This document shows, in pieces, positions 2,509-64,000 of a DNA stretch of 64,000 nt (position 1 is its first letter; each line of letters starts with the position of its first letter). Below the pieces are notes generated by a model. It worked only from the letters and a program-made list of their open reading frames with translations. It searched no databases and was not told where the DNA came from. The DNA is taken from NCBI GenBank assembly GCA_944359625.1, contig CALVSW010000003.1, positions 42,174 through 106,173 of the forward strand, given 5' to 3'. A program made the position numbers and the translations under genes. The DNA comes from an uncultured Bacilli bacterium. GTDB taxonomy: Bacteria; Bacillota_I; Bacilli_A; RF39; UBA660.

Positions 2509-2519
2509 GAGGATATAAA

Positions 2520-2966: not shown

Positions 2967-2999
2967 TAATGCTTTTTCTTTACTAAAGAAAGGATAAAA

Positions 3000-4055: not shown

Positions 4056-4056
4056 T

Positions 4057-4788: not shown

Positions 4789-4829
4789 AATTTAAAGTAA
4801 ACACTCAATATAAAGTTGGGTGATTTTAT

Positions 4830-5336: not shown

Positions 5337-5349
5337 TATATATAGATAG

Positions 5350-5877: not shown

Positions 5878-5936
5878 ATATCTAATATTTTTTAATTTTT
5901 TATGATAAAATTAAGTGAAAGGAAGAAAGTGTATAT

Positions 5937-7187: not shown

Positions 7188-7217
7188 AATTAATTATAGT
7201 TATTGGTGGGGGCATAT

Positions 7218-7766: not shown

Positions 7767-7794
7767 TTGAATTTTTGCTAACATATGATATAAT
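7767..7794 (+). promoter_or_regulatory. Sigma-A type promoter of rpmE (TTGAAT-16-TGaTATAAT)
   Basis: TTGAAT at 7767-7772, TATAAT at 7789-7794 with an upstream TG, about 55 nt before the rpmE start. Confidence 0.55.
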
Positions 7795-18300: not shown

Positions 18301-19366
18301 CTAAATTTTCTTTTTTAATAATTAAATTATTTTTTAAATCTTTTATTTCATTTTCTAACTCAGCAAGTCTTTTAGTTTTAGAAATAATATCTTTATTATT
18401 ATTATTTTCTTTTTCTATAATTGCTTTATCATACTCTTCTTTTAATTCTTTTATTTTCTTTTCTAAAATCCCTTTTTCAACTTCTAAATTATTATTTTCT
18501 TCTTTAAGTTTATTAAAATTTTCAATTAACTTATTATATTCTTTTTTAGTATCAGAGTATTTCTTAGCTTTTAAATATAATATTACTTGATTATAATTAT
18601 TATATACTTTAATAAAATTATTTAAGTCTTTAATTTTACTATTTAAGTCATCTATTTTTTCTTTAATAGTATTCATAGATTCAATAGTTTCTACTAATGG
18701 ATTAAGATCATCATTAGAAAGTGGTGGTAAAACATCATTTAAAGTTTTCATTAAAATACTCGGTTTATATTCTTTTGATAATTTAGGACTTCTAATTTGT
18801 AAAATAATATTTATAAATTCATCAAAAGATTCACTACTTTTAAACCCATATAATAAATTATTTACCATTTTTTTATATTCTTTGGCAGATTCTACAAAAA
18901 TATTATTTATTCCTAAACTAGCTCTTAACTCTAATTTAGTTAAAGGTGTTTTATTAAAACCATCTTTTTGTTTATATAGTTCAAATCCATCGTGCACTCT
19001 TCGTCCATCTTTTAAAGCAAAACCAAAAAAATCAGTTTGTTTTCCCCGTTTTGCTGTTAATCCAATTCCAATAGTAATATATTTTTCTTTTTTAGAATCA
19101 AAAAATTCCATGTATAAGTAGCCCGTTGAATTATCTTTATCTTCTCCTAATAGATAATATTCTATATGTTTATCGCTACCTCCAAAAGTATCTAATCTTT
19201 TAGGCGTTTTATTACCATCTAAAATAAGTGGAATAAATGATTGCATTGTAACAGATTTACCACTTCCATTTTTCCCTCTTAAAAGCATTTTCCCATCAAA
19301 AAATTCATATTCTTCTTCATCATAATACCAAAAGTTTAAAAGACCTAATTTTGTCGGTTTAATCAT
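15311..19366 (-). CDS. jetC: Wadjet JetC (TIGR02680-type SMC-like ATPase)
   Basis: About 1350 aa. Walker A LRGKNGSGKSV, a coiled coil of about 1000 aa rich in K/E/N, signature FSGGEKAKT and Walker B PRLIALDEAFAGVDD. The ATG at 19366 follows RBS GGGGTGA (ORF opens at the GTG at 19375). Confidence 0.9.
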   Translation of the reverse strand: MIKPTKLGLLNFWYYDEEEYEFFDGKMLLRGKNGSGKSVTMQSFIPLILDGNKTPKRLDTFGGSDKHIEYYLLGEDKDNSTGYLYMEFFDSKKEKYITIGIGLTAKRGKQTDFFGFALKDGRRVHDGFELYKQKDGFNKTPLTKLELRASLGINNIFVESAKEYKKMVNNLLYGFKSSESFDEFINIILQIRSPKLSKEYKPSILMKTLNDVLPPLSNDDLNPLVETIESMNTIKEKIDDLNSKIKDLNNFIKVYNNYNQVILYLKAKKYSDTKKEYNKLIENFNKLKEENNNLEVEKGILEKKIKELKEEYDKAIIEKENNNNKDIISKTKRLAELENEIKDLKNNLIIKKENLESSKNKINNLNKNNEGYENKINLLNNEVKKIISNIEDYSKKIYFNTLENYLNLIISGNLESFDIINDSIINKKKDIERIRNILKEKEEYNNKIEKSEVKFNKLIKEYNKIDELIKELNVKLDNEKDNFINILIENNRKHKEFILEDADLKEIINILADFNLDNYDLAKNKYDEIFQRYYQENTKKLSSLEVKLTDFNNELKDEENILSKLESEEEIELTDKELESETNLYLINNNINYISFYKVIEFKDDIDKNIKNSLEANLLSSGLLNAKIILLEDIKKVSNTNITYLVPSNKKKNNLSKYFNPIKNIKYFSEDYILSILESISIDETDNSYINEKSYKFDVLHGYNNIYEAKYIGFLNRKNEHLKKISKQKNLINELKSKITSVENLKISLENNNYILNDERKDFPNVYTLKNIISDIEENNIKTKIILENKNEQEEELKKLNNELENLMLELNKIKGNNKIPLNLASFNEASTIIEIIEKDFYSIKNREYEINSLKELKQNNLDYLKDVSKTFDDYLSIIAEDNKILTKKETEYQVIEKTLNTDEYKEISDKLKKLELIINNYPEKSSELERNLGKISENIIQKNANYQELHNQIEEMKIYLDLYFNILEEEFNLKYVINDFELNENNVDLLLNRISTINSLDKTRATANYYNGFNNYRQSLIDYSLNDIVLFDNKNLSIKLYLDKDIPEEKLINIFNEAERQDITAIYQGKKVNLYTLLSNLKDDYESNKILLSEKDRHLFEDILLRTIGSKIKDKINSAKEWVKNINDIMEEKGKDSNLRFYLSWLNKSKESLEEMDTKDLVEIFKMDPDLLNDEIINKLIKHFRAKIANAEEVMEENKQSYNDIIFNILDYRNWFEFKLYYKRLDGERRELTDKAFSVFSGGEKAKTMYIPLFASICAKLSSANEDAPRLIALDEAFAGVDDDNIEEMFAILSSFDLDYILTSQALWCDYSTVKDISICELVSDHVSKTIGVKHYRWNGKVRISLDGDL

Positions 19367-20534
19367 TATTATCACCCCATATATCTAATTGCTTATTCTT
19401 ATTTTCTATTAACTTACTACTAAAAATTCTAATGGCAGGAAGAATTTCATAATAATTATCAACATTCCTAATGAATGTGTATGTTTCTAAAATATCAATT
19501 ATATTATCAAAAAAAGCACTATCTGTTAAATCTTTTAATGTTTTACTTAAATAAATATTGTATTTATTTTTAATACCAATGATTATGTTATATAAATCTT
19601 CATAACTTATTTTTCCAATTTCATATTCATTTAAGATTATTTTATTTTCTTTAATAAGTTCATATAATTTTGTAAGTACTATTAAAACTATTGCAGAAAT
19701 TCTTTTATTATTTGGAAAACTATCTTTAGTTAAAGCATTTTCGTTTTCAAAAACCAAAGCCATATTTTTAGTAAGTTCTAATTCATAATTTAAATTACTT
19801 AATTCATTACTTATATGATGTCTTAATTGTTTTAAATAATCTATCTCACTTTTTGAAATATCATTCATATAAATACAAGGTGTATAAATTAAATTACGAT
19901 ATATTTTATATTTTCTAATATCCCCTTTTTCATCATTTTGATATGTCCATTCATCTTTAATAAAATCTTCTTCTTGTTTTATATCAAATATTTCGTTATT
20001 AAACATCCGCATAACATAATTTGATAATCCAGTAGAAATATACAAAGCTTCTGCGTTTTCATTATCGCTAAAATCATCTTTACTTGCATCTTTAAGTTTT
20101 ATAACCTTTATCTTTTCTAAAAAATTTACTGCTCTTTTTAAACTTTTTCGCTCTTTAGTAAGTGTCCAATTGGGTACATTATTTAGTTCTAATGCTACAG
20201 CAGTATTTTTAACATAATCTATTAAATCAGAAAGCATAAAATATGTTTCTCTCGTTTTATCTTCGAGAAATAATAATATTAAACATAAATAAATATAGTC
20301 AGTTTGTAATATAAAATTAGGTAAACCTATACTTTCTAAAGCTTGTGCTGGTATTTTTTCTAACTTTATAAAACGATCGTGAATTATTAAACGACTGCCT
20401 AATGTTTTATTAATATAATCTCTTAATAAATGTTGATTTCTTTTAATCTTATAGTAGTTATCTAAGTCATCTTCTTTTAAAATCCAAAAATTATTTAATA
20501 ATAATTGCATACATTCATTTATAGTCTCACTCAT
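19359..20534 (-). CDS. jetB: Wadjet JetB (TIGR02678/DUF2398-type kleisin-associated subunit)
   Basis: About 391 aa, overlapping both neighbours by 8 nt. Size and position match the second gene of TIGR02677-02680 cassettes. ORF opens at 20549. Confidence 0.75.
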   Translation of the reverse strand: MSETINECMQLLLNNFWILKEDDLDNYYKIKRNQHLLRDYINKTLGSRLIIHDRFIKLEKIPAQALESIGLPNFILQTDYIYLCLILLFLEDKTRETYFMLSDLIDYVKNTAVALELNNVPNWTLTKERKSLKRAVNFLEKIKVIKLKDASKDDFSDNENAEALYISTGLSNYVMRMFNNEIFDIKQEEDFIKDEWTYQNDEKGDIRKYKIYRNLIYTPCIYMNDISKSEIDYLKQLRHHISNELSNLNYELELTKNMALVFENENALTKDSFPNNKRISAIVLIVLTKLYELIKENKIILNEYEIGKISYEDLYNIIIGIKNKYNIYLSKTLKDLTDSAFFDNIIDILETYTFIRNVDNYYEILPAIRIFSSKLIENKNKQLDIWGDNND

Positions 20535-45149: not shown

Positions 45150-46091
45150 ATGAAGGGTAAGGAAAAAACATTTAAGACTATTGATGAACAAATTGATATT
45201 CTTTTAGAGAAAGGCCTTATCATAGATGATATTGATTATACTAAATCAATTCTATTACGTGAAAATTATTTTTTCCTTATGGGGTATCGTCATTTATTTT
45301 TAAAAACTGAAAAAGAAAGATACTTTATTACAAATACTAACTTTAGAGAATTATATGGAATGTTTAATTTTGATAGACAATTAAGGAATATAGTGTTTAA
45401 AAATATACTTATTGTAGAAAATAATGCTAAAAGTATATTTTCATATCAGTTATCTAAGAAATATGGTATTAAAGAAAAAAACTATTTAAACTCTAAAAAC
45501 TTTAATCAAGACCCCCAAAGACGACGTCAAGTACAAGATTTAATCAAAAAAATGCAACGACAAATAAGAGTTAATGGTGGTCAACATTCGGCAACGATGC
45601 ATTTTATAACAAAATATGGTTATATTCCTTTATGGATTGTAGTAAAAGTTTTATCTTTTGGTATAGTTAGTGAATTATTCACTATACTAAAACCAGAGGA
45701 TCAAAAAGAAATTGCTAATATTTATCAAATTAATGCAGATAATTTAGCTTTGTACTTACCAATATTAGCAAATTTTAGAAATTTATGTGCTCATGAAGAT
45801 ATTTTATATAATCATAAATCTCAACGAATTATTCCCGATACAAAATATCATAATATATTAAATATTCCTAAAATGAATGGTGAGTATATTTACGGAAAAG
45901 ATGATTTGTTTGCCCTTATTATTATTTTAAAACAGATGTTAAGAGAAGAACAATTTTGTTTATTATTAAATGAAATTTCTTACGAATTAGATGTTTTAGA
46001 AGGAAAATTAAGACATATAAAAATTGATAAAGTATTAGATGCTATTGGTTTTCCTAAAAATTATAAAAATTTACTAAGGATGGATTATTAA
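45150..46091 (+). CDS. Abi_2 (AbiD/AbiF-like) abortive-infection family protein
   Basis: 313 aa. The N-terminal TIDEQIDILLEKGLIIDD, YRHLF, and NLCAHEDILYN (the conserved R..xAH motif region) are typical of Abi_2 proteins. Confidence 0.75.
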   Translation: MKGKEKTFKTIDEQIDILLEKGLIIDDIDYTKSILLRENYFFLMGYRHLFLKTEKERYFITNTNFRELYGMFNFDRQLRNIVFKNILIVENNAKSIFSYQLSKKYGIKEKNYLNSKNFNQDPQRRRQVQDLIKKMQRQIRVNGGQHSATMHFITKYGYIPLWIVVKVLSFGIVSELFTILKPEDQKEIANIYQINADNLALYLPILANFRNLCAHEDILYNHKSQRIIPDTKYHNILNIPKMNGEYIYGKDDLFALIIILKQMLREEQFCLLLNEISYELDVLEGKLRHIKIDKVLDAIGFPKNYKNLLRMDY

Positions 46092-50922: not shown

Positions 50923-51576
50923 ATGAATTATAATGATATTTTAATTAAGTATATTGATGAATATCCATGTGATGAACCTATTTTTATTGAGGACATCAAA
51001 GATTATTTTAAAAATTATATTAAAAATAATTTTGATGATGTATTTAAAAATATTTATGTATATATTAATAGACTTGTAAAGGATAATAAACTTGTTCAAT
51101 TTATTAAAGGAGTTTATTATAAGCCTTTAAAAGGTACATTTGGAAATAAACTTTTAAATATTAATAAAGTTATTGATAAGAAGTATATACATGATGGAAC
51201 TAGACAAAAAGGATATTTAACAGGTGCTTATTTATTTAATAAAATAGGTTTAACTACGCAAGTACCAAAAGAAATTTTAATTGTTACTAATGAGTGTCCT
51301 AATGCAAATGATTATAATAATAAGAATTTAGGTGTTACTATTAGAAGACCTAAAATTGAAATTAATGATGATAATTATAAATATCTTCAACTTTTTGATG
51401 TGTTAATTAATAAGGATAATATAAAAATTGAAGTTGATAATGAAAAAGAAATTATTTATAAATTTATTAAAGATAATGAGTTAGAACTTGAAAAGATATT
51501 TGAATACGCTAATAAAATAAATAATTTAAAACCAATAAAAAGATTATATGAATTAGGAGGTGAAAATATTGAATAA
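50923..51576 (+). CDS. abiEi: AbiEi-like antitoxin (DUF6088-type wHTH protein)
   Basis: 217 aa, immediately upstream of the AbiEii gene and overlapping it. Size and N-terminal wHTH-like region fit; the call rests mostly on context. Confidence 0.6.
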   Translation: MNYNDILIKYIDEYPCDEPIFIEDIKDYFKNYIKNNFDDVFKNIYVYINRLVKDNKLVQFIKGVYYKPLKGTFGNKLLNINKVIDKKYIHDGTRQKGYLTGAYLFNKIGLTTQVPKEILIVTNECPNANDYNNKNLGVTIRRPKIEINDDNYKYLQLFDVLINKDNIKIEVDNEKEIIYKFIKDNELELEKIFEYANKINNLKPIKRLYELGGENIE

Positions 51577-52498
51577 AGAAATATTAGAAGAATTAATATT
51601 AAATATTAATAGTAGAACTGGTATTAGAAATGATATTTTGGAGAAAGATTATTATGTTTGTCTTGTTTTAAAAGAATTAGCTTATAAACAAAAAGAATTA
51701 CAAGCTTATTTTAAAGGTGGAACAGCTGTTTATAAGATATTAGATCATATGAATAGATTTTCTGAAGATATTGATTTAACTGTTAAAGTGAACGAAAATG
51801 AATCAAATAATAGTAACAAAACAAGATTAAAAAAGTCTGCACTTGGATATAGTATTGATGGTTTAATATTAGTAGATGATGAAACAATTGATAAAAAAGG
51901 AAGTATTACATCATTTTATAAATATGATTCATTGTTTAGTTTAAATGAACTTTTTAAATCAGAAAGAATACAGATAGAAGCGACTTCGTTTACTGTATCT
52001 GAACCAGTTTCTACTTATACTATTGAACCTCTTGTTTATAAGTATGCAACAGAAGAAGAAAGAAGTATTTTGAAAGAAAATTATAATATATCTGAATTTG
52101 AAATAGAAATTATTAAACTTGAAAGAATCTTTATTGATAAAATATTTGCTGCAGAATTTTATTATGAAAGAGAAATGTATGAAGATGTTTCTAAACATTT
52201 ATATGATATTTCTATTATGATAAAAAATGATGATATAAAAGAACTATTAAAAAATAAATCTGAATTAACTAAATTAATAGGTTATAAGAGAAAAGAAGAA
52301 AAATCTAGAATAGGTGGAATTCCTGAAGATAAAGATATAATTGATTTTGATTATATGAAGTTAGAGTTTAATGATGGCTTAGTTAGTGCTTTTAATAAAA
52401 TGCAAAGAATATATGTAATGGATAATGAAAGTGTAATAACTATTGATGATGTTAAGGAAACTATTAAAATATTATTTGATGTATTTAAAAATTTGTAG
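51560..52498 (+). CDS. abiEii: AbiEii/AbiGii-family nucleotidyltransferase toxin
   Basis: YFKGGTAVYKIL...RFSEDIDLTV is the AbiEii NTase core motif. 312 aa. Confidence 0.85.
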   Translation: MKILNKEILEELILNINSRTGIRNDILEKDYYVCLVLKELAYKQKELQAYFKGGTAVYKILDHMNRFSEDIDLTVKVNENESNNSNKTRLKKSALGYSIDGLILVDDETIDKKGSITSFYKYDSLFSLNELFKSERIQIEATSFTVSEPVSTYTIEPLVYKYATEEERSILKENYNISEFEIEIIKLERIFIDKIFAAEFYYEREMYEDVSKHLYDISIMIKNDDIKELLKNKSELTKLIGYKRKEEKSRIGGIPEDKDIIDFDYMKLEFNDGLVSAFNKMQRIYVMDNESVITIDDVKETIKILFDVFKNL

Positions 52499-53237: not shown

Positions 53238-54263
53238 ATGAAAGTATTATTTAATGTAACTTTATGTGAATTGGAAGATAAAATAAATAGACAAATATTG
53301 GTTGATGAAGATATCTTGTTAACAGATTTATGTGAGTATGTAATAGTTTCTATGGATGGTAAAAAAATTCCTATTTATGAACTTGAATATGGTAAAATTA
53401 TATATTGGCCGTATGATATAGAAGAGAGTAGATATGATAAAACTTTATTAGAATTAACTTTAAAAAGTTTAAACTTAAAGAAAGGTAAATCTTTTTGTAT
53501 TAGATATAATTTTGATAATTTTTATTATTTTGATTTAAGTGTAGATAATTTTATAGAAGAAGATAATGGTAATAAAAATGTGGATTTTAAAGTTTTATCG
53601 GGAAAAGGATATGGAATAATAGATGATAAAATGTGTTATTATTTAGTAGCATTATTTGCTGAAAAAAGAAAAGACTATGACTCTTATTATTTAAAGAGTG
53701 AAAAAGAATATTTACAAAAAAGATTTGATGTTAATGAAGTAAATGATAGAATTGATGATTATAAAAAGAGTAAAGAAGATATGCTATTACCTAAAAAATA
53801 TATATTTAATGTTTCGTTAGAGGGATTTAATAAAGAAATTAAAAGAAAAATTTCAGTAAATAGTAATATAACAATAAACAGGTTTTGCGAAAAAGTAGTT
53901 TTATCTATGAATGGTGATTTATCGCATCCATTTGATGTAAAAATAGGAAAAGAATATTTAGGAGAATATTATAGTGACCTTGAATTATTTTATTTGAATT
54001 TAAAAGAAAAAAATAAATTGAAAGTTATTTATGACTGGGGAGATAATTGGCAATTTAATTTGACTCTTAGTAAAATAACCCACGGTACTAGTGAGAATGA
54101 ATTTGAAGTTTTATCAGGAAAAGGATATGGAATAATAGATGATTGTGGCGGAGTTTGGACTTTAGGAGATATTTTTAGTGGTGAAAATACTGATTGGGGA
54201 GATTATGATATAAATGAATTTAATTTAGAAAAGTGTAATGAAGATGTTCAAAAAATAGGATAG
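53238..54263 (+). CDS. pRiA4b ORF-3-like family protein with duplicated domain
   Basis: The C-terminal copy VIYDWGDNWQFNLTLSKI...LSGKGYGIIDDCGGVW is canonical. The N-terminal copy IRYNFDNFYYFDLSV...LSGKGYGIIDDKMCYY is degenerate. Confidence 0.7.
   Translation: MKVLFNVTLCELEDKINRQILVDEDILLTDLCEYVIVSMDGKKIPIYELEYGKIIYWPYDIEESRYDKTLLELTLKSLNLKKGKSFCIRYNFDNFYYFDLSVDNFIEEDNGNKNVDFKVLSGKGYGIIDDKMCYYLVALFAEKRKDYDSYYLKSEKEYLQKRFDVNEVNDRIDDYKKSKEDMLLPKKYIFNVSLEGFNKEIKRKISVNSNITINRFCEKVVLSMNGDLSHPFDVKIGKEYLGEYYSDLELFYLNLKEKNKLKVIYDWGDNWQFNLTLSKITHGTSENEFEVLSGKGYGIIDDCGGVWTLGDIFSGENTDWGDYDINEFNLEKCNEDVQKIG
53590..53627 (+). repeat. Intragenic 38-nt direct repeat, copy 1
   Basis: AAGTTTTATCGGGAAAAGGATATGGAATAATAGATGAT matches 54106-54143 at 37 of 38 positions. 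Confidence 0.9.
54106..54143 (+). repeat. Intragenic 38-nt direct repeat, copy 2
   Basis: AAGTTTTATCAGGAAAAGGATATGGAATAATAGATGAT, 516 nt downstream of copy 1. Confidence 0.9.
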
Positions 54264-54473: not shown

Positions 54474-55297
54474 TTGGAATATAAAAGCGGAAATAAGTCG
54501 GTATATGCCAATAATATGTTCTTTATAAAATTAAGAAATAAAATAGAACATAGTTATTTAAATTGTACTGATTTAGAAATCAAAATATTTGGAGAATGTC
54601 AATCTTTGTTATATAACTATGAAAATTTTATAATTGAAAATTTTGGAAAAGAATATGCAATAAATGTTTCATTACCTTTTTCATTACAATTTTCTGAATT
54701 ACGTAATGAAAAGTCTTATAGATCTAGCAAAATGTTATTATCTAAAGAAATGTCAAAAATAAATGATTTCATAGATAAATTTAGAGATAATTTGTCAAAT
54801 GATATATATGCTACGCAAGAATATAGTATAAAATTAGTACAAATACCAATAGTTTCTAATACAAATAAAAGTGATTTAGCAATTCAATTTTTAAATTGGG
54901 ATAAATTATCTGATGAAGAAAAAAAGAAGTTGAACGATTAACTGCATTAATAAAAACAAAAACAGTAATAAAAAGTATATCAAACGCTGACAAGATGTTG
55001 CCTGGAACTATAAATATTAAAGTTAAAGAAAAATATCCAAAATTTAACATAAATCTTCATTCGTATTTAACGTATATTTTTTCTATAAGGCCGTCAAAAA
55101 AATTGGAATCAAATAAAGATCCATTTGATACAAATACAAAGTATTGTTATTATGATCAGACACATAAAGATTACCAATATACAAATGAATGGCTAGAATT
55201 TATATTAAAACTTTTTGAAGAAGAAAAATTGTCTATTGAGAAGATTAAAAAATTATATAAAAATAAAGAAAAGTTAGAAATTCAAGAATATGAATAA
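54474..55297 (+). pseudogene. Unassigned gene split by a frameshift near an A7 run, also lacking a credible N-terminus
   Basis: The ORF ending at 54941 (..DKLSDEEKKKLND) and the ORF in the next frame (open from about 54930: ERLTALIKTKTVIKSISNADKMLPGT...) join if 1 nt is changed in the A7 run (GAAAAAAAG) inside GAAGAAAAAAAGAAG at about 54915-54930. Confidence 0.4.
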
Positions 55298-56173: not shown

Positions 56174-57757
56174 GTGTATAACACTGTGTTACAGCACCCT
56201 AGTTATTATAGAGTAGGATTATATATAAGATTATCTGAATCAGATTCTGATAAAAGTTATGAATCAGAAAGCGAAAGTATTATTAATCAAAGAAATTTAT
56301 TAATGAGCTTTGTAAAACAAAATGAATTTACTTTTGTTGATGAATATATTGATGATGGATTTACCGGTACTAATTTTGATAGACCTGGATTTAAAAGATT
56401 AATTGATGACATAGAAAAAGGTAGAATTAATTGTGTTATAACTAAAGATTTATCTAGATTAGGTAGAAATTATGTAACATGTGGATATTATGTAGATGAA
56501 TACTTTCTTTTAAAGAAAGTTAGATATATTGCTGTATTAGATCAGGTTGATACTTTTTTAAATAATGCTGGTAATGAAATGATACCATTTAAATCAGTAT
56601 TTAATGACATGACTAGTAGGGATAATTCTAAAAAAATTCGTTCTATTTTAAGAAATAAAAAAGAAATTGGAAAATTTATTGGAAGTGAACCTAGTTTTGG
56701 ATATATGAGAGATCCAGAAGATAAAGGACATTTATTACCTAATCCAGAAACTGCATTTATTGTGAAAAAAATATTTGAAATGGCAAATGATGGAATAAGT
56801 GTAAGTGATATAGCAAGTTATCTTAATGATTGTAAATATCCTACACCGAGTCTATATAAGAAAAAAGAAGGTTCTAAACAAAAGATTAATACAATATGGA
56901 CTATTTCATCAGTAAAAAAAATATTAAAAAATCAGATGTATACTGGAGATATGGTACAAAATGTTCAAACTAAATTATCATACAAATCACCTAAAAAAGT
57001 AACACTTAATAAAGAAGCATGGATAATTGTACCTAATACTCATGAACCTTTAGTTAGTAGAGAAGTGTTTTTTAAAGTACAAAATAATGTTAAAAGGAAA
57101 CCAAAGACACAATCTAATAGAGAAAAAAGACTATTTGAAAATCTTATTTACTGCAAAGAATGTGGAAACACTTTAACAGTTACTTACCGAAAAAAACAAG
57201 ATTATTGGACTGTTAATTGTAATAGGTATTCGAGAGATCCAAGAAGACATTTATGTTATCCACATTTTATGCCATATGATAAGTTAGAAGAATCATTACT
57301 AGATACAATAAAAAAGACTTGTAAAAAATATTTAGATAAATTAGATGTTAAATCATTAGCAAAATTAGTTAATGATAAAAATAATAAAAAAGAAAGTAAT
57401 ATGGAAGAAATCAATTATTTAAATAAAAGGATTAAAGAATGTAATTCTAAAATTGATATGTTATACGATGATAAATTTAAAGGTAATATTTCAGAAGATA
57501 CTTATAAAAGATTATCTAGAGAAACAGAAATATTATTAAATCAATCTAAAGCAAGATTGGAAGAATTACAGAGTATAGATAAAAAGAAAATTGATTCTGC
57601 TAAAGAAATTAAAAAGTATGAAGAAAAAATTAAAGAATTAATTAATCTTAATAAACCAAGTAGAGAATTATTACAATCTATCATTGATAAAATAATTATA
57701 GATAAAGATAGAAATATTGAAATCTTTTATAAATTCAGTTTGTTGAATAATATTTGA
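56174..57757 (+). CDS. Large serine recombinase
   Basis: GTG start after AAAGGAGA. VGLYIRLSESDSD contains the catalytic Ser. ITKDLSRLGRNY; CKECG...zinc ribbon; C-terminal coiled coil; 527 aa. Confidence 0.92.
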   Translation: MYNTVLQHPSYYRVGLYIRLSESDSDKSYESESESIINQRNLLMSFVKQNEFTFVDEYIDDGFTGTNFDRPGFKRLIDDIEKGRINCVITKDLSRLGRNYVTCGYYVDEYFLLKKVRYIAVLDQVDTFLNNAGNEMIPFKSVFNDMTSRDNSKKIRSILRNKKEIGKFIGSEPSFGYMRDPEDKGHLLPNPETAFIVKKIFEMANDGISVSDIASYLNDCKYPTPSLYKKKEGSKQKINTIWTISSVKKILKNQMYTGDMVQNVQTKLSYKSPKKVTLNKEAWIIVPNTHEPLVSREVFFKVQNNVKRKPKTQSNREKRLFENLIYCKECGNTLTVTYRKKQDYWTVNCNRYSRDPRRHLCYPHFMPYDKLEESLLDTIKKTCKKYLDKLDVKSLAKLVNDKNNKKESNMEEINYLNKRIKECNSKIDMLYDDKFKGNISEDTYKRLSRETEILLNQSKARLEELQSIDKKKIDSAKEIKKYEEKIKELINLNKPSRELLQSIIDKIIIDKDRNIEIFYKFSLLNNI

Positions 57758-58036
57758 TTTATAGAAGTTAGTTCTATACTAACTTCATACATTTAAGGGC
57801 GAGATAATGAAGTTTAGTTGCTAATTAACTTTGTGGTAGGTTGGCACAAAGTTAGTGATATAAAAATTAAATTAGTTATTTAGTGGTGCGAAATAAAATA
57901 TCATACTGTTATATAAACTTATTACAAATATAAATATTTATACAAGTTTCGGGATAACTTATCTCAATATTTAAATAAAAAAACAAATTATCTGCAAACA
58001 AATATATATATGATAAAATATTAATGGTGGTTAACT

Positions 58037-58222
58037 ATGGAAGAAATAATTATAAATAAAGCTAAATGTAAAAAATGTGGAGATATAATTGAATCTAAAG
58101 ACGTAAATGATTTTAAAAGGTGTGCTTGTGGTAGTATAGCGGTAGATGACGGACAGGATTATATTAAAAGAGTTGGTAATAAGGATGATATAATAGGTCT
58201 TGAAAAATTTGAAAAATGGTAA
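58037..58222 (+). CDS. Small zinc-ribbon protein
   Basis: 61 aa with CKKCG...CACG (two CxxC-type pairs) and RBS GGTGG. Confidence 0.5.
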   Translation: MEEIIINKAKCKKCGDIIESKDVNDFKRCACGSIAVDDGQDYIKRVGNKDDIIGLEKFEKW

Positions 58223-58238
58223 AAAAGGAGGGTAAAAG

Positions 58239-59066
58239 ATGAGTAATATAGAAGAATATACAGAAAAAACTTTTGAGAGTATAAAACATCTTGATGAATT
58301 TGGTAATGAATATTGGGAAGCCAGAGAATTAATGCCATTACTTGAATATAGTAAATGGGAAAACTTTCATAAAGTAATTAAAAGAGCAAAAGTTGCTTGT
58401 GAAACTAGTAATAATAATGTTAATGATCACTTTCCTGAGTTCAGGAAACCGATAGTTGGTGGTAAGGGAAATGCTCAAAACGTTATTGATTATCATTTAT
58501 CAAGATACGCTTGTTATTTAATAGTTCAAAATGCAAATCCAAGGAAGAAATCAGTAGCACTTGGGCAAACATATTTTGCAATACAAACTAGAAAACAGGA
58601 AATTACCGAATTAGAATATTCAAAGTTATCAGAAGATGAAAAAAGATTATATACTAGAATTCTTGTTAATAATAAAAATAAATATTTATTTAAAACAGCA
58701 AGAGATGCAGGTGTAGAAAATTTTGGCAAATTTAATAATTATGGTTATAAAGGACTTTATAATGGAGAAACGGCAAAACAAATTGCAAAACGAAAGAATA
58801 TAAAAGAAAATGAAGATATTCCTGATTATATGGGTAGTGAAAAATTAGGTGCTAATCTATTCCGTATTACACAAACTGAAGCAAAACTTAAAAAGGATAA
58901 TATAGATAATGAAGATGATGCTTGTCTTAGACACTATAATGTAGGTAAAACGGTTAGAAAAGCAATTGAAGAATTAGGTGGTAATATGCCTGAAACTTTA
59001 CCAACACCAAAAAAATCTATTAAAGAACTAGAAAATGAAGAATTACAAAAAATTGGAAATAATTAA
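58239..59066 (+). CDS. dinD: DNA-damage-inducible protein D
   Basis: 275 aa. SRYACYLIVQNANPRKKSVALGQTYFAIQTRKQE, GYKGLYNGETAKQIAKRK, LGANLFRITQTEAKLKKD and VRKAIEELGGNMPETLPTP align along the full length with E. coli DinD as I recall it. Confidence 0.88.
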   Translation: MSNIEEYTEKTFESIKHLDEFGNEYWEARELMPLLEYSKWENFHKVIKRAKVACETSNNNVNDHFPEFRKPIVGGKGNAQNVIDYHLSRYACYLIVQNANPRKKSVALGQTYFAIQTRKQEITELEYSKLSEDEKRLYTRILVNNKNKYLFKTARDAGVENFGKFNNYGYKGLYNGETAKQIAKRKNIKENEDIPDYMGSEKLGANLFRITQTEAKLKKDNIDNEDDACLRHYNVGKTVRKAIEELGGNMPETLPTPKKSIKELENEELQKIGNN

Positions 59067-59115
59067 TAAATATAAATAGTATTTATATAAAAAATAATGA
59101 AATAGAGAATATGTC

Positions 59116-59141
59116 CGATTTTGGTGCTAACACCAAAATCG
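59116..59141. promoter_or_regulatory. Perfect 11-bp inverted repeat (CGATTTTGGTG-CTAA-CACCAAAATCG) upstream of the WYL regulator gene: candidate operator or RNA hairpin
   Basis: Read directly from the sequence. It lies in a locally GC-richer 147-nt intergenic region, 73 nt before the regulator ATG. No T-run follows it. Confidence 0.4.
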
Positions 59142-59213
59142 TGGGAAATAACAATTAGGGACACAATAACCATCGCGAGGTCTTAATAGAGAGTTATAAA
59201 AGGAGAAGTAAAT

Positions 59214-59807
59214 ATGGGAAAAATATCCAATGCAATTCAAATGTTAAATTATTTAAATACTGGTAATAAATATACGGTGAAAGAATTATCTCGAAAATTA
59301 GGGATAACTGAGCGTATGGTTAGATATTATAAAAAAGAATTAGAAGAATCTGGTATTCCAATAGAAACTTTTATGGGACCTAATGGTGGATATTTTATTA
59401 TAAATAAGTATAATCAATATAATCAATTTAATAAGTATGATATTCAATTGTTAGAAAATATATATGAAATCTTAAAAGATAATAATTATCTTTATATTGA
59501 TAAATATAAAAAATTATTAGATAAAATCAAAACTACTAATGATATAAATGAAGAAAAAAGTAAGTATTTTTTTGCTAATAAAATTGAAGATAATTCAAAA
59601 GTATATTTTACTTTAAATGAAGCAATTGTTAATAATTCTAAAATAGCTATTTTATATAGAAATCTAAATCAAGAATGGCAAGAGAGAAATATTCATCCAA
59701 TACAAATTTTTAAATTTGATAATAGATTTTATGTTACAGCTTATTGTGAGTTAAGAAATGATATAAGACATTTTGAATTTAATAGGATAAAAATAAAAGA
59801 AAAATAA
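59214..59807 (+). CDS. HTH + WYL-domain transcriptional regulator
   Basis: N-terminal HTH_11-like IQMLNYLNTGNKYTVKELSRKLGITERMVRYYKKELEESGIPIE. C-terminal WYL-like ILYRNLNQEWQERNIHPIQIFKFDNRFYVTAYCELRNDIRHFEFNRI. Confidence 0.75.
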   Translation: MGKISNAIQMLNYLNTGNKYTVKELSRKLGITERMVRYYKKELEESGIPIETFMGPNGGYFIINKYNQYNQFNKYDIQLLENIYEILKDNNYLYIDKYKKLLDKIKTTNDINEEKSKYFFANKIEDNSKVYFTLNEAIVNNSKIAILYRNLNQEWQERNIHPIQIFKFDNRFYVTAYCELRNDIRHFEFNRIKIKEK

Positions 59808-59832
59808 TAAAGACATAATACTTCCTATATAT

Positions 59833-59842
59833 GTGCTATAAT
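59833..59842 (+). promoter_or_regulatory. Extended -10 promoter element TGcTATAAT for the HAD/PRTase/kinase operon
   Basis: TG at 59834-59835 and TATAAT at 59837-59842, 22 nt before the ATG at 59865, which has a GAGGTGA RBS. Confidence 0.45.
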
Positions 59843-59864
59843 ATGAAATATAAGAGGTGATATT

Positions 59865-60344
59865 ATGTTTGAACGTCCAATTTTTATTGATTTTGATGGT
59901 GTTATATTTGATACTGAAAAGAGGGTAATTCAACAAAAAGAACAATTACCAAAAATAAGTTGGGAAGAATTTTTTGCAACACTAGATTGGTTTAAATTAT
60001 TAGAGGAATCAAAAGTAATAAATAATGCTGTTGATTATATATTAGAAGGGCAGGAAAAAAACAAAAAAATTGCTATTTTAACAAAAATACATACTTTACT
60101 TGAAATGCAGGCTAAAGTTAATAAACTTCGCAACTGTAATATTAATGTACCTATATTATTTGTACCACCACATGTTAAAAAAACTTCAATTTATTTACCA
60201 CATAATGGAGAAATATTAGTTGATGATAGTATAAAAAACCTGAAGGATTGGAAAGAGCATGGTGGCGTTGGAATACATTTTGATGAGAGTTTAAATTTTG
60301 ATTCTGAATTTCAAACAATAAATGTATTAAAAAAAGTTTTATAA
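59865..60344 (+). CDS. Small HAD-superfamily hydrolase (5'-nucleotidase/deoxyribonucleotidase-like)
   Basis: Motif I FIDFDGVIFDT (DxDG) and motif IV-like ILVDDS. 159 aa with a minimal cap. Confidence 0.6.
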   Translation: MFERPIFIDFDGVIFDTEKRVIQQKEQLPKISWEEFFATLDWFKLLEESKVINNAVDYILEGQEKNKKIAILTKIHTLLEMQAKVNKLRNCNINVPILFVPPHVKKTSIYLPHNGEILVDDSIKNLKDWKEHGGVGIHFDESLNFDSEFQTINVLKKVL

Positions 60345-60355
60345 GAGGTGTTATT

Positions 60356-62692
60356 ATGATGGATGAAATATTATTAGAAAATTATCATAATGCCCTAGAA
60401 CAAAAGTATAATGCAATTTGTTTTGATATTGATGGTACATTAACTGAAAAAAATTCTACTAAATTAGATAAACGTATTTTGCCTTTTATTGCTAATTTAT
60501 TAAGCAGGCATGTACCTATTGTTTTTATTACAGGAAGAGGAGAAACTGGATTACTTGATTTAAAAAAACAAATTATTAACGGCTTAAAAGACAATTATGA
60601 TATTAGTAATTATGATTTATCAAAATTATATGCACTTACCAATGATGGAGCAAGACTGTTTTTAACAACTGCTGCTAGTAATGACATTTTTAATGTTAGT
60701 AAATATATTGCATCTTCTATAGATTTACAAAAATTGAAATATTTAGATAAGGAATTAAGGAAAAAATTAGAAGAAAAAGAGTTATTAAAATATTGTAAAG
60801 TAACTTATTCTAAGGACGAAAAATTAAATTTTATAGTTAATATAAGAATTGCCACGACTACTAATAACGAAAATATAAACAATAGTGTATTAGAAATTAT
60901 TAATGAGTTGATTGCTAATTCTGAATCAAAAAATATTAATTTAACAATAGGTGTTTATAATGGAAATAAAATATTTCAAGTAGGAACAACTATTAAGAGC
61001 AACGCTATACAGGTAGCAGAAAAAATTATTGGTATACCACAAAATTCAATGATGAGGATCGGAGATTGTGGCGATGAGTTGGGGAATGATTATAGTATGT
61101 TAAATTGTTCTCAAGGATTTAGTGTTGATAAAACAAGTAGTGAAACTGATAAATGTTTTCCCATTTTAGATGATAATAATAGAATATTAAAAGGTGTAGA
61201 TGCAACTTTATTTTTGTTGAATAAAGCTAAATTATTACCAACAATTTGTTTAGAACATGCTACGGAAACTAATTATACTAAGGCATATGCTAAAGTAGAA
61301 AGACAAATGAATTATTGTAAAAACAAAAGAATAATGGTTTTTAATGAAATTATAAATAACAAATTTCAATTAGTAGATGGAATATATGGATTATACGATA
61401 AGTCGAGTGGCAGTATAAAGATTCCTATGTATGATTGGATTAGTATTGATAATGATAACCCTTTAAAACAATTTTGGAGTAAACATTCTTTTTTGAAAAT
61501 GAAATATGCAATGTGTGATAATGAGAATATTTTGTTAAGAGGTTCACAAGTATATTATTATTTTCTATCTAATCGTTATCACGATGAAATAACTAGAAAT
61601 GATGTAACTTCAAAAGACATGGTGAATATATGGTTAAATAACAATAAAACATTTTTTATGGATGCTATAGAAGCTATAAGTAAAACAAACGATTTAAATA
61701 GTTTAAATAATTCTAAAATGGTTTTAGGAGTACTTGACAACATACGAAATGAACTGCTAATTTTATTAAATCAACAAGTAATTAAAAGTAGTAAAAATCA
61801 AACATTATATCTTAATTTAGAAAAAATTGATAAAAATACATTGGTGTATAAAATATATAAAACTTTATTAGGTGTAATTAAATTGATGCAGTATATTTCT
61901 TTTAACGATAGTTATTTAATTGACAGTAATGAATTATATTGCGTATTAAATAATGCAATTATAGTTACAAATGAATTTCAATCAATGTTTTCACAAGAAA
62001 ATACAAATGATAATTATTCAAAAGAATTTAGAGCATACAGAGAAATTGATAATTTTGCTGAAAACTTCATTACTTGTTATTTAACATACAAAAATGATAG
62101 TGCCATATCTGATAAAGGAATATGTGGCCTATCATACGGAGGAATTGAACTTCCTATTATATTAAAATCTATAAATAATGCTATGAGCGATGTATCAATT
62201 TTAAAATTTAACAAAAATGCAAGCGGATATTCCAAAAAACAGTCAATTGATTTAAGATTTTTTGATATATCAAAATCAGGTGGAATTATGCAAGTTGGCA
62301 TTGACAAAAATAAGAAGTATATCTTAGTTGATGATAATTTGCTGACTGGTAAAACGATGCAACTTGCCTTGACTACTTTATATGACATTGGAATAGATGT
62401 TGACAAAATAGTTGTTGTTAGATATCCAGGTGTTAATAGAATTAGTCAAATGTTTATGAATAATCATGGAGCTATAGACTATAGACTTTTTTTCAATTTT
62501 ATTCAAGGATTATATTTTCCTAGTCCATATAGTTGGAGAGACCCTAATAGTTTAAATCCTTATGAAGATTCTTTAGGTATTTTTGATTTAAATCGTAGGA
62601 AAATAATTGAATGTTTAGCAAAAAATGGCGATTATTATGAAAAAAGTGAAGTAGTATATGTAAAAAGGATGGTAAAACGTGAAAATAATTAG
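60356..62692 (+). CDS. Fusion protein: N-terminal Cof-type HAD-IIB phosphatase + about 300-aa unassigned helical region + C-terminal type I phosphoribosyltransferase domain
   Basis: AICFDIDGTLT, FITGRG and GDCGDELGNDYSML are HAD motifs I, II and IV. KYILVDDNLLTGKTMQLA is the PRPP-binding loop of type I PRTases. 778 aa. Confidence 0.7.
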   Translation: MMDEILLENYHNALEQKYNAICFDIDGTLTEKNSTKLDKRILPFIANLLSRHVPIVFITGRGETGLLDLKKQIINGLKDNYDISNYDLSKLYALTNDGARLFLTTAASNDIFNVSKYIASSIDLQKLKYLDKELRKKLEEKELLKYCKVTYSKDEKLNFIVNIRIATTTNNENINNSVLEIINELIANSESKNINLTIGVYNGNKIFQVGTTIKSNAIQVAEKIIGIPQNSMMRIGDCGDELGNDYSMLNCSQGFSVDKTSSETDKCFPILDDNNRILKGVDATLFLLNKAKLLPTICLEHATETNYTKAYAKVERQMNYCKNKRIMVFNEIINNKFQLVDGIYGLYDKSSGSIKIPMYDWISIDNDNPLKQFWSKHSFLKMKYAMCDNENILLRGSQVYYYFLSNRYHDEITRNDVTSKDMVNIWLNNNKTFFMDAIEAISKTNDLNSLNNSKMVLGVLDNIRNELLILLNQQVIKSSKNQTLYLNLEKIDKNTLVYKIYKTLLGVIKLMQYISFNDSYLIDSNELYCVLNNAIIVTNEFQSMFSQENTNDNYSKEFRAYREIDNFAENFITCYLTYKNDSAISDKGICGLSYGGIELPIILKSINNAMSDVSILKFNKNASGYSKKQSIDLRFFDISKSGGIMQVGIDKNKKYILVDDNLLTGKTMQLALTTLYDIGIDVDKIVVVRYPGVNRISQMFMNNHGAIDYRLFFNFIQGLYFPSPYSWRDPNSLNPYEDSLGIFDLNRRKIIECLAKNGDYYEKSEVVYVKRMVKRENN

Positions 62693-64000
62693 TATAGGTG
62701 ATTTAGTAACAGATTTTTATTATAAAAATGAAAAGTTAATTGGGGTTAATGGTGGGATGACGTCTCATAATATAATTGCTAATATTAGTCAAATGGGAAT
62801 AAAAACTTCAGTATGTGGAGTTTGTGGTGATGATGCAGCAGGGAATATTGCAATAAAAAGTTTATCAGATTTAGGTGTTGAAACTAACTATGTACATGTT
62901 ATAAAAAATTTGAAGACAAGATGTTTTCATGTTTCTTATTCAACAATTAGTGATAAATTGGAGTTTAAATCAAAAAAGAGATGCCCTATGTGCAATCAAA
63001 AAAAATGGTATGAAGAAAGTAATATTAATCCAAATGAAATAATGTCTGTTATAGCTAAAGATGATGTATTAGTATTTGATAATTTAAATGAAAAAAATCA
63101 AATCATTATAAATAATACTAAAAATAGAAAAATGTTAGATTTGGGTCAATATTTTGAACTAGATAATTATACTAATGAAGAAATGATAGAAAAATTAGGA
63201 GATAAATTTGATTTTATAAACTTAAACGAGCGAGTAGAAAAATATTTAAAAAATAGATTTTCTATGGAATCATTGGAAGATATATATAATTTATTGCATC
63301 CTAAAATGATAATTGTTACTAGGGGAAAAAAGGGTTCAGATTTTGTTTTTAATTATAATACAGTCAATAAAGAGTTAAATAAGCCTTCAATAGAAGTTGA
63401 TCCAACAGGTGCTGGTGATGCGTTTTTTGGAATGTTTATTAGTGAGTATGTAAAAAATAATTATATTATTGATTGTAAATTTATAGATATAACTTTTGAA
63501 AAAGCTACAAAATTAACAAGTAAAGTTGTAAAAAAATTTGGTGCTAGAGGTCATATACAATCATTGTATAAAATTAAAAGGATAAAAAATTTTTGTTCAT
63601 GTGAAAATTTTGAAGTTTCAGTAAGAAAAAAAATAAAACGATGCAACATAAATATTAATAATTTAGAAAAAAGGATAATAAATGCTATTAATAGTAATGC
63701 TTATGAAAAATTAAAAACTATTAATTTTTCTAATAGAAAGAATTATCTTTTTGTAGGTACAGGCGGGTCCTTCGCTGGAGCAAAATTTTCTGCAAAAATT
63801 ATTAACAATTTATATGGTTCAAATACAATAACTTTATTACCTAGAAATGTATATTATAGAAATAATGATAATATTGATAATGTATTTTTATTTACATATT
63901 CTGGTACTACAAATGATTTGCTTGTAGGAACTTCTTTATTAGATAATGATAAAAAGTTTATTATCACAAAAGGTGAAATTCAAAATGTAGTAACAAAGAC
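62679..64000 (+). CDS. Fusion protein: PfkB-family sugar/nucleoside kinase + SIS (sugar isomerase)-like domain; 3' end beyond window
   Basis: Not in ORF track because it is open to the window end. The GTG at 62679 follows AAGGATGG and overlaps the upstream stop. MKIISIGDLVTDFYY...GVCGDDAAGN...DPTGAGDAFFG are PfkB signatures. A later FVGTGGSFAGAKFSAKI is a SIS-like P-loop. Cys pairs RCPMC and CSC..C are present. Confidence 0.7.
   Translation, partial: MKIISIGDLVTDFYYKNEKLIGVNGGMTSHNIIANISQMGIKTSVCGVCGDDAAGNIAIKSLSDLGVETNYVHVIKNLKTRCFHVSYSTISDKLEFKSKKRCPMCNQKKWYEESNINPNEIMSVIAKDDVLVFDNLNEKNQIIINNTKNRKMLDLGQYFELDNYTNEEMIEKLGDKFDFINLNERVEKYLKNRFSMESLEDIYNLLHPKMIIVTRGKKGSDFVFNYNTVNKELNKPSIEVDPTGAGDAFFGMFISEYVKNNYIIDCKFIDITFEKATKLTSKVVKKFGARGHIQSLYKIKRIKNFCSCENFEVSVRKKIKRCNININNLEKRIINAINSNAYEKLKTINFSNRKNYLFVGTGGSFAGAKFSAKIINNLYGSNTITLLPRNVYYRNNDNIDNVFLFTYSGTTNDLLVGTSLLDNDKKFIITKGEIQNVVTK

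Follow-up and report, generated by a model that had tools for sequence, protein, structure and literature searches.

In a 64,000-nucleotide (nt) stretch of a contig from an uncultured gut bacterium of the Bacilli (CALVSW010000003.1; hereafter the window, with a G+C content of about 23%) we have identified a four-gene cassette as a mobile accessory unit that is present or absent at the level of strains and occupies variable insertion sites. The cassette encodes a helix-turn-helix (HTH) regulator with a WYL domain, a small HAD protein, a 778-residue protein in which a HAD phosphatase domain is joined to a predicted type I phosphoribosyltransferase (PRTase) through a segment here named domain X, and a PfkB-family kinase fused to a SIS-like half. 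Our preferred reading, to which we assign a probability of roughly 0.45, is that the cassette serves in biological conflicts as a mobile module under WYL repression, and that its two core proteins would make a non-canonical nucleoside-like or ribosylamine-type small molecule; on the sequence evidence the conflict role would most likely be anti-phage. A first-pass annotation, made from the letters and their translated reading frames, had described the locus as an unassigned WYL-regulated cassette that would make or destroy either a phosphorylated sugar or a compound of phosphoribosyl type, and this description stands.

Four co-directional genes occupy positions 59067-64000 of the window (Table 1); the three enzyme genes are numbered here from the small HAD. 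The gene order, the 11-nt gap between genes 1 and 2 (60345-60355), the 14-nt overlap between genes 2 and 3 (62679-62692) and every motif quoted in the first-pass annotation are found in the window sequence. That annotation had also taken the operon to continue past the window end, which proved wrong. Six metagenome contigs (L001-L006) carry an identical 778-residue protein and place gene 3 last in the operon, so the cassette consists of four genes. On the first of these contigs gene 3 is complete (654 aa; L001 5638-7602, identical to the window), and the cassette is followed by an AAA_14/DUF4143 ATPase gene, a gene for a TPR protein and then the core genes LysM, SleB-like, HtpG and ClpB.

Table 1. 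Features of the cassette, of its surroundings and of related loci. Coordinates are those of the window unless a contig is named.
Feature	Position	Strand	Length, motifs or basis
HTH-WYL transcription regulator	59214-59807	+	197 aa
Operon promoter and box	59811-59842	+	cross-species conservation
Small HAD (gene 1)	59865-60344	+	159 aa; FIDFDGVI
HAD-X-PRTase fusion (gene 2)	60356-62692	+	778 aa; AICFDIDGTLT, GDCGDELGNDYSML, ILVDDNLLTGKTMQLA
Predicted domains of the 778-aa protein	residues ~1-290 (HAD-IIB), ~292-585 (X), ~585-778 (type I PRTase and C-terminal extension)
PfkB and probable double SIS-like fusion (gene 3)	62679-64000, open at window end	+	GTG start; DPTGAGDAFFG, CPMC, GTGGSFAGAKF
Left direct repeat copy	59153-59181	+	AATTAGGGACACAATAACCATCGCGAGGT; junction alignment with empty site L132
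Right direct repeat copy	just past gene 3 stop, L001 ~7603-7630, beyond the window
AbiD	45150-46091		PADLOC/Pfam
AbiEi/AbiEii	50923-52498		PADLOC/Pfam
Two-repeat PRiA4_ORF3 protein	53238-54263		internal 45-nt repeat at 53583 and 54099
Truncated DUF3644/PDC-S19 gene (fragment)	54474-54941		PADLOC/Pfam
Large serine recombinase	56174-57757		PADLOC/Pfam
Bro-N/DinD-like gene (PDC-S13)	58037-59066		7e-102
AAA_14/DUF4143 gene (PDC-S01)	3' of cassette		1e-176
Examples of genes inserted in the operon	L013 10324-11648; L020 7035-7688; L050 5421-7422; L083 10430-12407
Loci listed with flanking repeats	L013, L014, L028-L032, L037, L043, L051, L056, L069, L071, L075, L078, L084, L086, L087, L089
Distant core loci, Mycobacterium sp. 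MBM	L096/L097
Distant core loci, high-GC contigs	L098-L100, L103, L104/L105
Distant core loci, environmental contigs	L106-L108, L110, L111, L113, L114

The cassette belongs to a large family. The 778-residue protein has more than 613 close homologues, and clustering of its family at 50% identity gives 466 clusters, 115 with values below 1e-30; every cluster is labelled "hypothetical" or "HAD hydrolase". With each GTDB species represented by one genome, a scan yielded 80 loci, almost all of them in metagenome-assembled genomes of uncultured gut Bacilli or "Tenericutes"; the hosts include Candidatus Faecisoma merdavium (91% identity), Onthousia, Caccenecus, Coprosoma and "Mycoplasma sp. CAG:472". 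The order WYL, small HAD, HAD-X-PRTase, PfkB-SIS occurs in about 70 species-level genomes and is kept essentially wherever the contig permits a view, with the WYL gene lying directly 5' of the enzymes in 71 of the 80 gut-clade loci. The cassette is therefore a conserved unit, beyond what chance would produce.

Full-length relatives of the 778-residue protein at 22-35% identity are found in other phyla, among them loci of 44-69% GC from environmental metagenomes. A PfkB-SIS gene follows the HAD-X-PRTase gene directly, often overlapping it, in 12 of the 14 distant loci that could be assessed, the exceptions being L109 and L091; L109 lacks PfkB-SIS, and its two upstream reading frames have no match in the PDB. 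The distant PfkB-SIS proteins are about 715-740 residues long and align over their full length with the gut protein (E 1e-42 to 1e-51). There is no WYL gene and no small HAD at the distant core loci, and at three of them (L096 and L097, which encode the same Mycobacterium protein, and L103) a divergent XRE-type HTH gene is present. The WYL-linked trio of enzyme genes described in the first-pass annotation thus holds within the gut-Bacilli clade, whereas distant loci keep only the two large genes. Comparison of these loci indicates that the two fusion genes are the evolutionary core, to which the WYL regulator and the small HAD appear to have been added in gut Bacilli.

In about 10 of the 80 species representatives (approximately 12%) the 778-residue reading frame is frameshifted or nonsense-mutated. 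Disrupted large enzyme genes were seen at L007, L023, L043, L062, L079, L083, L084, L086, L089 and L090, with a disrupted PfkB-SIS gene at L063, and several of the frameshifts fall at A-runs. The use of genetic code 4, with TGA read as tryptophan, was rejected as the cause of the split genes, which contain frameshifts or TAA, TAG or TGA codons at non-tryptophan positions. The disrupted copies may be pseudogenes, products of phase variation or, for some, assembly errors.

The enzymatic families of the three proteins carry the chemical part of our reading. Sixteen homologues of the small protein encoded by gene 1 share its four HAD motifs (D9, D11, K106 and D120-D121) without exception, which places it in the HAD superfamily, as had been proposed. 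Its closest structure in the PDB is 3bwv, a 5'(3')-deoxyribonucleotidase (E 0.066). We assign it to the 5'(3')-nucleotidase (NT5C-like) type only tentatively, because all of its profile scores are sub-threshold (NT5C 0.0085, HAD-IA 0.01, PADLOC PDC-S08 0.003).

For the N-terminal domain of the 778-residue protein, the HAD-IIB model TIGR01484 gives 6.9e-8 and 32.8 bits, below its cut-off of 41.8 for this single sequence; the motifs D24-x-D26, T59, K214 and D237..N244-D245 vary little or not at all, and distant relatives pass PF08282. A Foldseek search with an AlphaFold2 model built on 25 homologues (pLDDT 86.9, pTM 0.86) placed ISN1, the 5'-nucleotidase of Plasmodium and yeast that is specific for IMP, first (E ~3e-8) and sugar phosphatases of the Cof-type HAD-IIB group next, and motifs and fold together put the N-terminus in the HAD-IIB group. 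Among the viral structures of BFVD this domain is best matched by a HAD from the Ter-carrying phage vB_AbaM_ME3. The C-terminal PRTase region behaves similarly: it scores 4e-4 and 20.1 against Pfam PF00156 (Pribosyltran), under the cut-off of 26.3, and contains the loop VDDNLLTGKT, in which D659, D660, N661 and T664 never vary. When 18 diverse relatives were used to build a profile of the C-terminal 230 residues, it matched PyrR (1e-4) and then, weakly, APRT, HGPRT and PRPP (phosphoribosyl pyrophosphate) synthetase; PF00156 itself matches 11 of the 18 relatives, with a best value of 4e-7. Throughout the family the HAD residues DxD / T / K / DD and the PRTase motif DDN..T(G)xT are retained, and the catalytic motifs are invariant down to 22% identity. 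The HAD-IIB and PRTase calls of the first-pass annotation are accordingly supported at the level of the family, by motifs, folds and profiles, whereas the single sequence stays below the curated cut-offs.

Between these two domains lie approximately 300 residues that had been left without assignment, and residues ~292-585 have no profile match in the PDB or in Pfam; whole-protein Foldseek lists are taken up by HAD and PfkB domains. The segment has a set of invariant residues of its own (D348, G352, R395-G396, Y400, D461, R464 and R562-E563-D565), and we regard it, from this pattern of conservation, as a predicted new domain, X.

The PfkB call for the N-terminal half of gene 3 is secure. The protein scores 1e-18 and 68 bits against PF00294, well above the cut-off of 25.8, and the top 50 matches of a fold search are all PfkB kinases at E ~1e-15 (ribokinase, aminoimidazole-riboside (AIR-riboside) kinase, nucleoside kinase and adenosine kinase). 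The CxxC insert noted previously is an invariant CPxC of zinc-ribbon type. No NCBIfam equivalog cut-off is approached by any enzyme of the cassette, the PfkB half scoring 50 vs 450 for fructokinase, 44.9 vs 300 for ribokinase, 41.8 vs 247 for FrlD and 40 vs 345 for rfaE_dom_I. The C-terminal 330 residues are a probable double SIS-like domain. Their top PDB hits are the double-SIS protein 1j5x and the GlmS isomerase 3tbf (E ~0.01); Pfam SIS is the commonest match of the family, in 8 of 14 members, with a best value of 0.003 and all of them below the cut-off; distant homologues have weak or faint precomputed hits to PF01380; and the AlphaFold2 secondary structure divides into two alpha/beta halves. 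No signal came from comparing the profile with E. coli FrlB (probability 0.3%), a weak test given its single-sequence template. The earlier SIS call can thus be kept as probable, and at the level of the family only, where the matches are weak but specific. Motifs of gene 3 that are invariant across phyla are GG, CPxC, GAGD, GARGH, G(T/S)GGS, SG..D, ERGF, LESK..E and HExK..SHGRF.

Variants of the operon point in the same chemical direction. At 21 gut loci extra, translationally coupled genes stand between the two large genes, encoding either a chloramphenicol acetyltransferase-like (CAT-like) acyltransferase with an alpha/beta hydrolase, the hydrolase alone, or a DHH/DHHA1 phosphoesterase with an APH-family kinase; the last pair gives a weak TCAD9 hit. 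Among distant relatives, P0287 is a HAD-X-PRTase fused to phosphoribosylanthranilate isomerase (PRAI, TrpF) and to a domain of the ribulose-phosphate 3-epimerase (RPE) family, P0328 and P0339 have an N-terminal metallophosphatase, and P0351 and P0356 are fused to a domain resembling class I Trp/Tyr-tRNA synthetases. PRAI and the SIS enzymes of the GlmS/FrlB class both act on amino-ketose (Amadori-type) sugar phosphates, and this shared chemistry therefore allows two reaction orders for the cassette. In one, a sugar phosphate may be isomerised and activated and then coupled to a base, by analogy with angustmycin biosynthesis; in the other, PRPP may first be joined to an amine or base and the resulting ribosylamine then rearranged and re-phosphorylated.

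The sole match in 72,556 plasmids is a HAD-less X-PRTase on pRML02 of B. cereus (L095, NZ_CP011157.1 102046-115042). It is encoded in an operon that runs from an aminotransferase through the X-PRTase, a CatA-like O-acetyltransferase, a small DxD HAD, an acyl carrier protein (ACP), a hypothetical gene, a pyridoxal-phosphate-dependent decarboxylase and an adenylate-forming enzyme to an ABC transporter. The O-acetyltransferase is 32% identical to the CAT-like gene of the gut loci, and an extra metG, for methionyl-tRNA synthetase, lies upstream. From its gene content the operon looks like a biosynthetic cluster for an amino-acid/nucleoside-type compound, and its product may be a nucleoside-type inhibitor of tRNA synthetases.

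The candidate control elements of the cassette are likewise conserved. The regulator exceeds the Pfam cut-off for WYL (6e-15), matches HTH_11 (1.4e-7) and generic PADLOC WYL models (2e-26), and finds PafBC in the PDB at 9e-5, with weak matches to CapW (0.009) and BrxR (0.07). Both HTH and WYL domains are present in its 197 residues, without a C-terminal WCX domain. Upstream of the enzymes a box, AGACATAATACTTC (59811-59824), covers the -35 position and is followed, after a 12-nt spacer, by the extended -10 element TGcTATAAT (59834-59842). The family consensus of the box is AGACnAAATATTTC, which contains the palindrome GAAATATTTC, and its spacing of 12 nt to TATAAT was found in 58 of 71 WYL-to-HAD spacers with a strict pattern and in about 68 of the 71 by eye, the -10 element usually being TGnTATAAT. 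In 2.3 Mb of locus DNA the box turns up only 85 times. The WYL gene is separated from the first enzyme gene by 57 nt, and this spacer is conserved in its nucleotides even where the proteins are only 40-50% identical. Since a simple scan for promoter-like matches showed no enrichment in this AT-rich DNA (48 found vs 55 expected), it is the conservation of the fixed-spacing box across species that validates the promoter proposed in the first-pass annotation and leads us to propose the AGACnAAATATTTC box as the likely WYL operator.

Two other candidates for control elements were discarded. A search of 57700-64000 against Rfam at E<=1 found no riboswitch or other RNA family, and a riboswitch or RNA leader was rejected on this result. 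A perfect 11-bp inverted repeat at 59116-59141 (CGATTTTGGTG N4 CACCAAAATCG), between the Bro-N and WYL genes, was dropped as an operator since it is not conserved at other loci; it is also found at the empty site described below and is therefore part of the flank and not of the cassette.

The mobility of the cassette is seen most directly on contig L132, from the same sample series. There a Bro-N gene identical to that of the window is followed directly by the AAA_14 gene, and exactly the four-gene cassette is missing. Junction alignment shows one repeat copy at this empty site (2290-2511) and an imperfect direct repeat flanking the cassette where it is present. With a minimum score of 16, flanking repeats were detected in 18 of 60 loci, compared with 4 of 300 mismatched-pair controls. 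They are about 20-60 bp long (124 bp in L056), differ in sequence from locus to locus and often coincide with the terminator hairpin of the upstream gene, the right copy starting at the stop codon of PfkB-SIS. The four genes include no recombinase, and neither att sites nor tRNA targets were found in the window. The cassette may move by Campbell-type recombination of a circular form, through an integrase supplied in trans, or in some other way. On L132 the stretch 2512-6125 holds two AAA_14/DUF4143 (PDC-S01) paralogues with a TPR gene between them, and cassette-bearing strains show one such gene before their contigs continue.

The surroundings of the cassette, which had been described as accessory and defence-related and not as transporter or catabolic DNA, fit that description both in the window, by its Abi genes and PADLOC candidate defence (PDC) genes (Table 1), and elsewhere. 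Among 122 immediate neighbours from 60-odd gut species there are 166 Pfam families, none of which occurs more than five times, and there is therefore no conserved metabolic neighbourhood; the neighbours include three serine recombinases, three ABC ATPases and nucleotide housekeeping genes (NUDIX, Ham1, HD_4), and GNAT genes adjoin some loci. At L010 the two-gene core comes directly after a tyrosine integrase. In other phyla the core adjoins an OLD-like AAA_15/21 ATPase, an N6_N4 methyltransferase and a ResIII helicase (L104), or lies within a region resembling an integrative and conjugative element (ICE) with TraG/TrwB, Prim-Pol and an rve integrase (L098). At L103 the core stands between a SIR2_2-containing gene pair and the Tn7-like genes TnsB/TniB/TniQ (4862-7773, 16886-20475), by an intein-containing dnaB, and may be cargo of a Tn7-like transposon. 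In the window itself, the 14 kb upstream of the cassette resemble a defence island and have DUF7695 among their genes; several metagenome contigs end right at the serine recombinase, which suggests strain variation at that point.

According to the model that we favour, the WYL protein would bind the AGACnAAATATTTC box over the -35 position and hold the operon off until a ligand produced in stress or infection lifts the repression. PfkB-SIS would then isomerise and phosphorylate a sugar phosphate, the PRTase domain would attach a base or amine to an activated (phospho)pentose or hexose, and the nucleotidase-like HAD domain, together with the small HAD, would strip the terminal phosphate. The product is envisaged as a non-canonical nucleoside-like or ribosylamine-like molecule serving inside the cell as an antimetabolite or signal. 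We infer that WYL represses the operon, and likewise the sequence of the reactions, what the product is and what it acts on. A bolder form of the proposal, which we consider doubtful, holds that HAD-X-PRTase and PfkB-SIS constitute an unrecognised chemical immune system spanning phyla, that, once derepressed, they use a PRTase route and domain X, as a new catalytic or substrate-binding domain, to turn central sugar phosphates into an antimetabolite (a non-canonical nucleoside or a compound of ribosylamine/Amadori type), and that the gut-Bacilli version is a recombinase-less cassette which inserts after terminators and duplicates 20-60 bp of its target (124 bp at one locus).

Several observations weigh against the proposal of a nucleoside-producing conflict module. 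Established defence matches are few among the 122 gut neighbours and many of the PADLOC hits are to generic or candidate models, so that any enrichment in defence islands is putative. No relative was found in 50,697 phage records or in IMG/VR, a result on which a phage origin of the cassette was also rejected. On the chemical side, the SIS assignment depends on weak scores, and the cassette has no pyrophosphokinase resembling PRPP synthetase, so that either PfkB or domain X would have to supply this step or the PRTase would use ordinary PRPP. The minimal cassette also contains neither an exporter nor an immunity gene, which leaves the tolerance of the host towards a toxic product unexplained.

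The same enzymes could act by consumption instead of synthesis, as a metabolic abortive-infection toxin whose futile cycle drains PRPP, ATP and nucleotide pools and so starves phage replication. In such a cycle the PRTase would make a nucleoside monophosphate from PRPP, the two HADs would convert it to the nucleoside, and PfkB-SIS would burn ATP and divert sugar phosphates. There are precedents in the disruption of purine metabolism by ShosT (PMC11961720) and in the PRTase-like effector of retron Eco11 (PMC12746101). The fusion of an ISN1-like nucleotidase fold to a PRTase would suit the cycle, the frequent disruption of the genes suggests a cost to the host, and tight WYL control with a conserved putative operator fits a dangerous activity. 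Depletion would, however, need fewer than the five conserved catalytic domains and conserved domain X that are present, and gives the SIS isomerase no obvious role; relatives occur in a biosynthetic-looking operon with an ACP, an aminotransferase and an exporter, and the optional acyltransferase/esterase pair points to a defined product. We consider this explanation unlikely.

Accessory salvage or catabolism in gut Bacilli of reduced genome size, for example of Amadori (fructosamine-like) or ribosylamine compounds, strikes us as quite unlikely. A FrlD-like kinase would phosphorylate the substrate, an FrlB-like SIS deglycase would split it, and the PRTase and nucleotidases would recycle the bases. 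The PfkB half does match fructoselysine 6-kinase weakly (8.7e-11), the double SIS resembles the GlmS/glucosamine-6-phosphate deaminase class that handles amino-ketose phosphates, hosts with small genomes in the gut depend on salvage, and NUDIX, Ham1 and HD_4 genes are among the neighbours. Yet no transporter is linked to the cassette (the 122 neighbours contain only three ABC ATPases), the regulator is not of a sugar type, the equivalog scores lie far under their cut-offs (FrlD and ribokinase, as given above), and the comparison with E. coli FrlB, itself made with a single-sequence template, was without signal. Nor does a salvage role sit well with strain-level presence and absence, variable insertion sites and about 12% disrupted genes, or with the occurrence of the same pair in ICE, Tn7-like and restriction contexts of other phyla.

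The pRML02 operon raises the possibility of a nucleoside-type antibiotic or signal directed against other bacteria, such as an inhibitor of an aminoacyl-tRNA synthetase or of GMP synthase. Its ABC exporter and the extra plasmid-borne metG form a classic self-resistance arrangement, distant members of the family are fused to TrpRS/TyrRS-like domains, and angustmycin provides a precedent (PMC8599513). The gut cassette and the two-gene cores of Actinobacteria, however, have neither an exporter nor a resistance gene, and WYL control together with SIR2, restriction-like and Abi neighbours fits intracellular defence better; we judge this explanation improbable for the cassette. A resistance cassette that inactivates a nucleoside or aminoglycoside-like drug is far-fetched, for although CAT-like, alpha/beta-hydrolase and APH-family genes may be present in the operon, GNAT genes stand beside some loci and the cassette acts as a mobile unit, the conserved core lacks those CAT-like, hydrolase and APH-family genes, PRTases and sugar-phosphate isomerases are not resistance activities, and 72,556 plasmids yielded only the biosynthetic-looking pRML02 operon.

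Should the conflict-module reading prove right and the cassette be a defence system, it would represent a second enzymatic route, after the viperins, to antiviral nucleoside-type molecules in bacteria, a class that is a proven source of drugs. It would also give a function to a large unannotated family that is widespread in uncultured Bacilli of the human and animal gut, the defence repertoire of which is almost unknown. Domain X and the kinase-isomerase fusion would be new enzymology, and the conserved box, if it is indeed the WYL operator, would offer a ready genetic switch with which to find the signals that derepress WYL-controlled modules. The long, locus-specific repeats and the empty allele, in a cassette with no internal recombinase, hint at an unexplained mode of cassette movement.

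The conclusion of the first-pass annotation that this is no named system was upheld: neither the 778-residue protein nor PfkB-SIS matches any model of PADLOC-DB v2.0.0, and a full-text literature search found no description of the gene combination. Resemblances to characterised systems are nevertheless instructive. In its presumed regulation the cassette is like BREX with BrxR and CBASS with CapW, in which an HTH-WYL gene lies just 5' of the presumably repressed module and a palindrome-containing operator is located at the promoter; WYL regulators are described as controlling defence systems (PMC9122601, PMC9122589). BrxR and CapW, however, possess the C-terminal WCX dimerisation domain that the cassette regulator lacks. 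The operator-like box is at the enzyme promoter and not 5' of the WYL gene, unlike in the BrxR/CapW type, and the presumed targets are metabolic-type enzymes, unlike those of the BREX and CBASS regulators. With these differences and its weak similarity, the protein falls outside the BrxR/CapW type.

The first-pass annotation had pointed to the logic of ADP-heptose synthesis and to the FrlB/FrlD pair, and both analogies survive as chemical logic and fail as memberships. In GmhA/HldE/GmhB three activities comparable to those predicted here, of the SIS isomerase, PfkB kinase and HAD phosphatase types, act in series on a sugar phosphate, but in the cassette a PRTase replaces the nucleotidyltransferase domain, the neighbours are not cell-envelope genes and the HldE equivalog score is 22.6 vs 521. 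FrlB/FrlD pair a double-SIS enzyme of the amino-ketose class with a PfkB kinase, as gene 3 probably does, with the difference that the cassette has no FrlA transporter, FrlC or FrlR.

Other resemblances are to systems built on PRTases and HADs. In a validated defence system the PRTase toxin ShosT perturbs the metabolism of purines (PMC11961720), and retron Eco11 has a PRTase-like effector (PMC12746101), so that ShosTA and Retron-Eco11 use in anti-phage defence a type I PRTase fold of the kind predicted for the cassette. The cassette, by contrast, contains no DprA-like antitoxin, reverse transcriptase or non-coding RNA (Rfam found nothing), matches none of the corresponding PADLOC models, and has its PRTase in one polypeptide with a phosphatase and next to a separate kinase-isomerase protein. 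DS-9, a validated yet unexplained system of a metallophosphatase and a HAD (PMC13092281), is a lead by description only, prompted by the metallophosphatase fusions. According to PMC7824862, Anantharaman, Iyer and Aravind (2012) proposed that PRTases and HAD enzymes associated with Ter synthesise a signal resembling a nucleoside. The elements that the cassette would have in common are a PRTase, a HAD phosphoesterase and a context of stress or phage resistance, as in the Ter-carrying phage vB_AbaM_ME3, and Pfam PRTase_2 is matched weakly by 3 of 18 members of our family. Ter systems, however, lack PfkB-SIS, the Ter module is itself a prediction and not a characterised pathway, and no TerB, TerC, TerD, TelA or ATP-grasp gene is found in the annotated loci or among the top 25 neighbour families, which places the cassette outside the Ter group.

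A further chemical parallel is with angustmycin/psicofuranine, for which the epimerase AgmD, the pyrophosphokinase AgmC, the APRT-like adenine phosphoallulosyltransferase AgmE and the HAD phosphatase AgmB have been established experimentally (PMC8599513). There, a sugar-phosphate isomerase or epimerase, anomeric activation, a type I PRTase-like transfer and a HAD phosphatase lead to an unusual nucleoside antimetabolite, and P0287 even carries a domain of the RPE family. The cassette differs in lacking a PRPP-synthetase-like pyrophosphokinase, an RPE-family epimerase, LOG and a dehydratase; its isomerase is of the SIS type and its kinase of the PfkB type, the activities are gathered in two fusion proteins with domain X, and it is WYL-controlled and without an exporter. 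The sequence relationship is at the superfamily level only, and with just the PRTase and HAD steps in common the cassette is not of the angustmycin type. To judge from the literature searched, the gene set described here is unreported; the kind of system to which it probably belongs, nucleotide-derived small-molecule chemistry in biological conflicts, is known.

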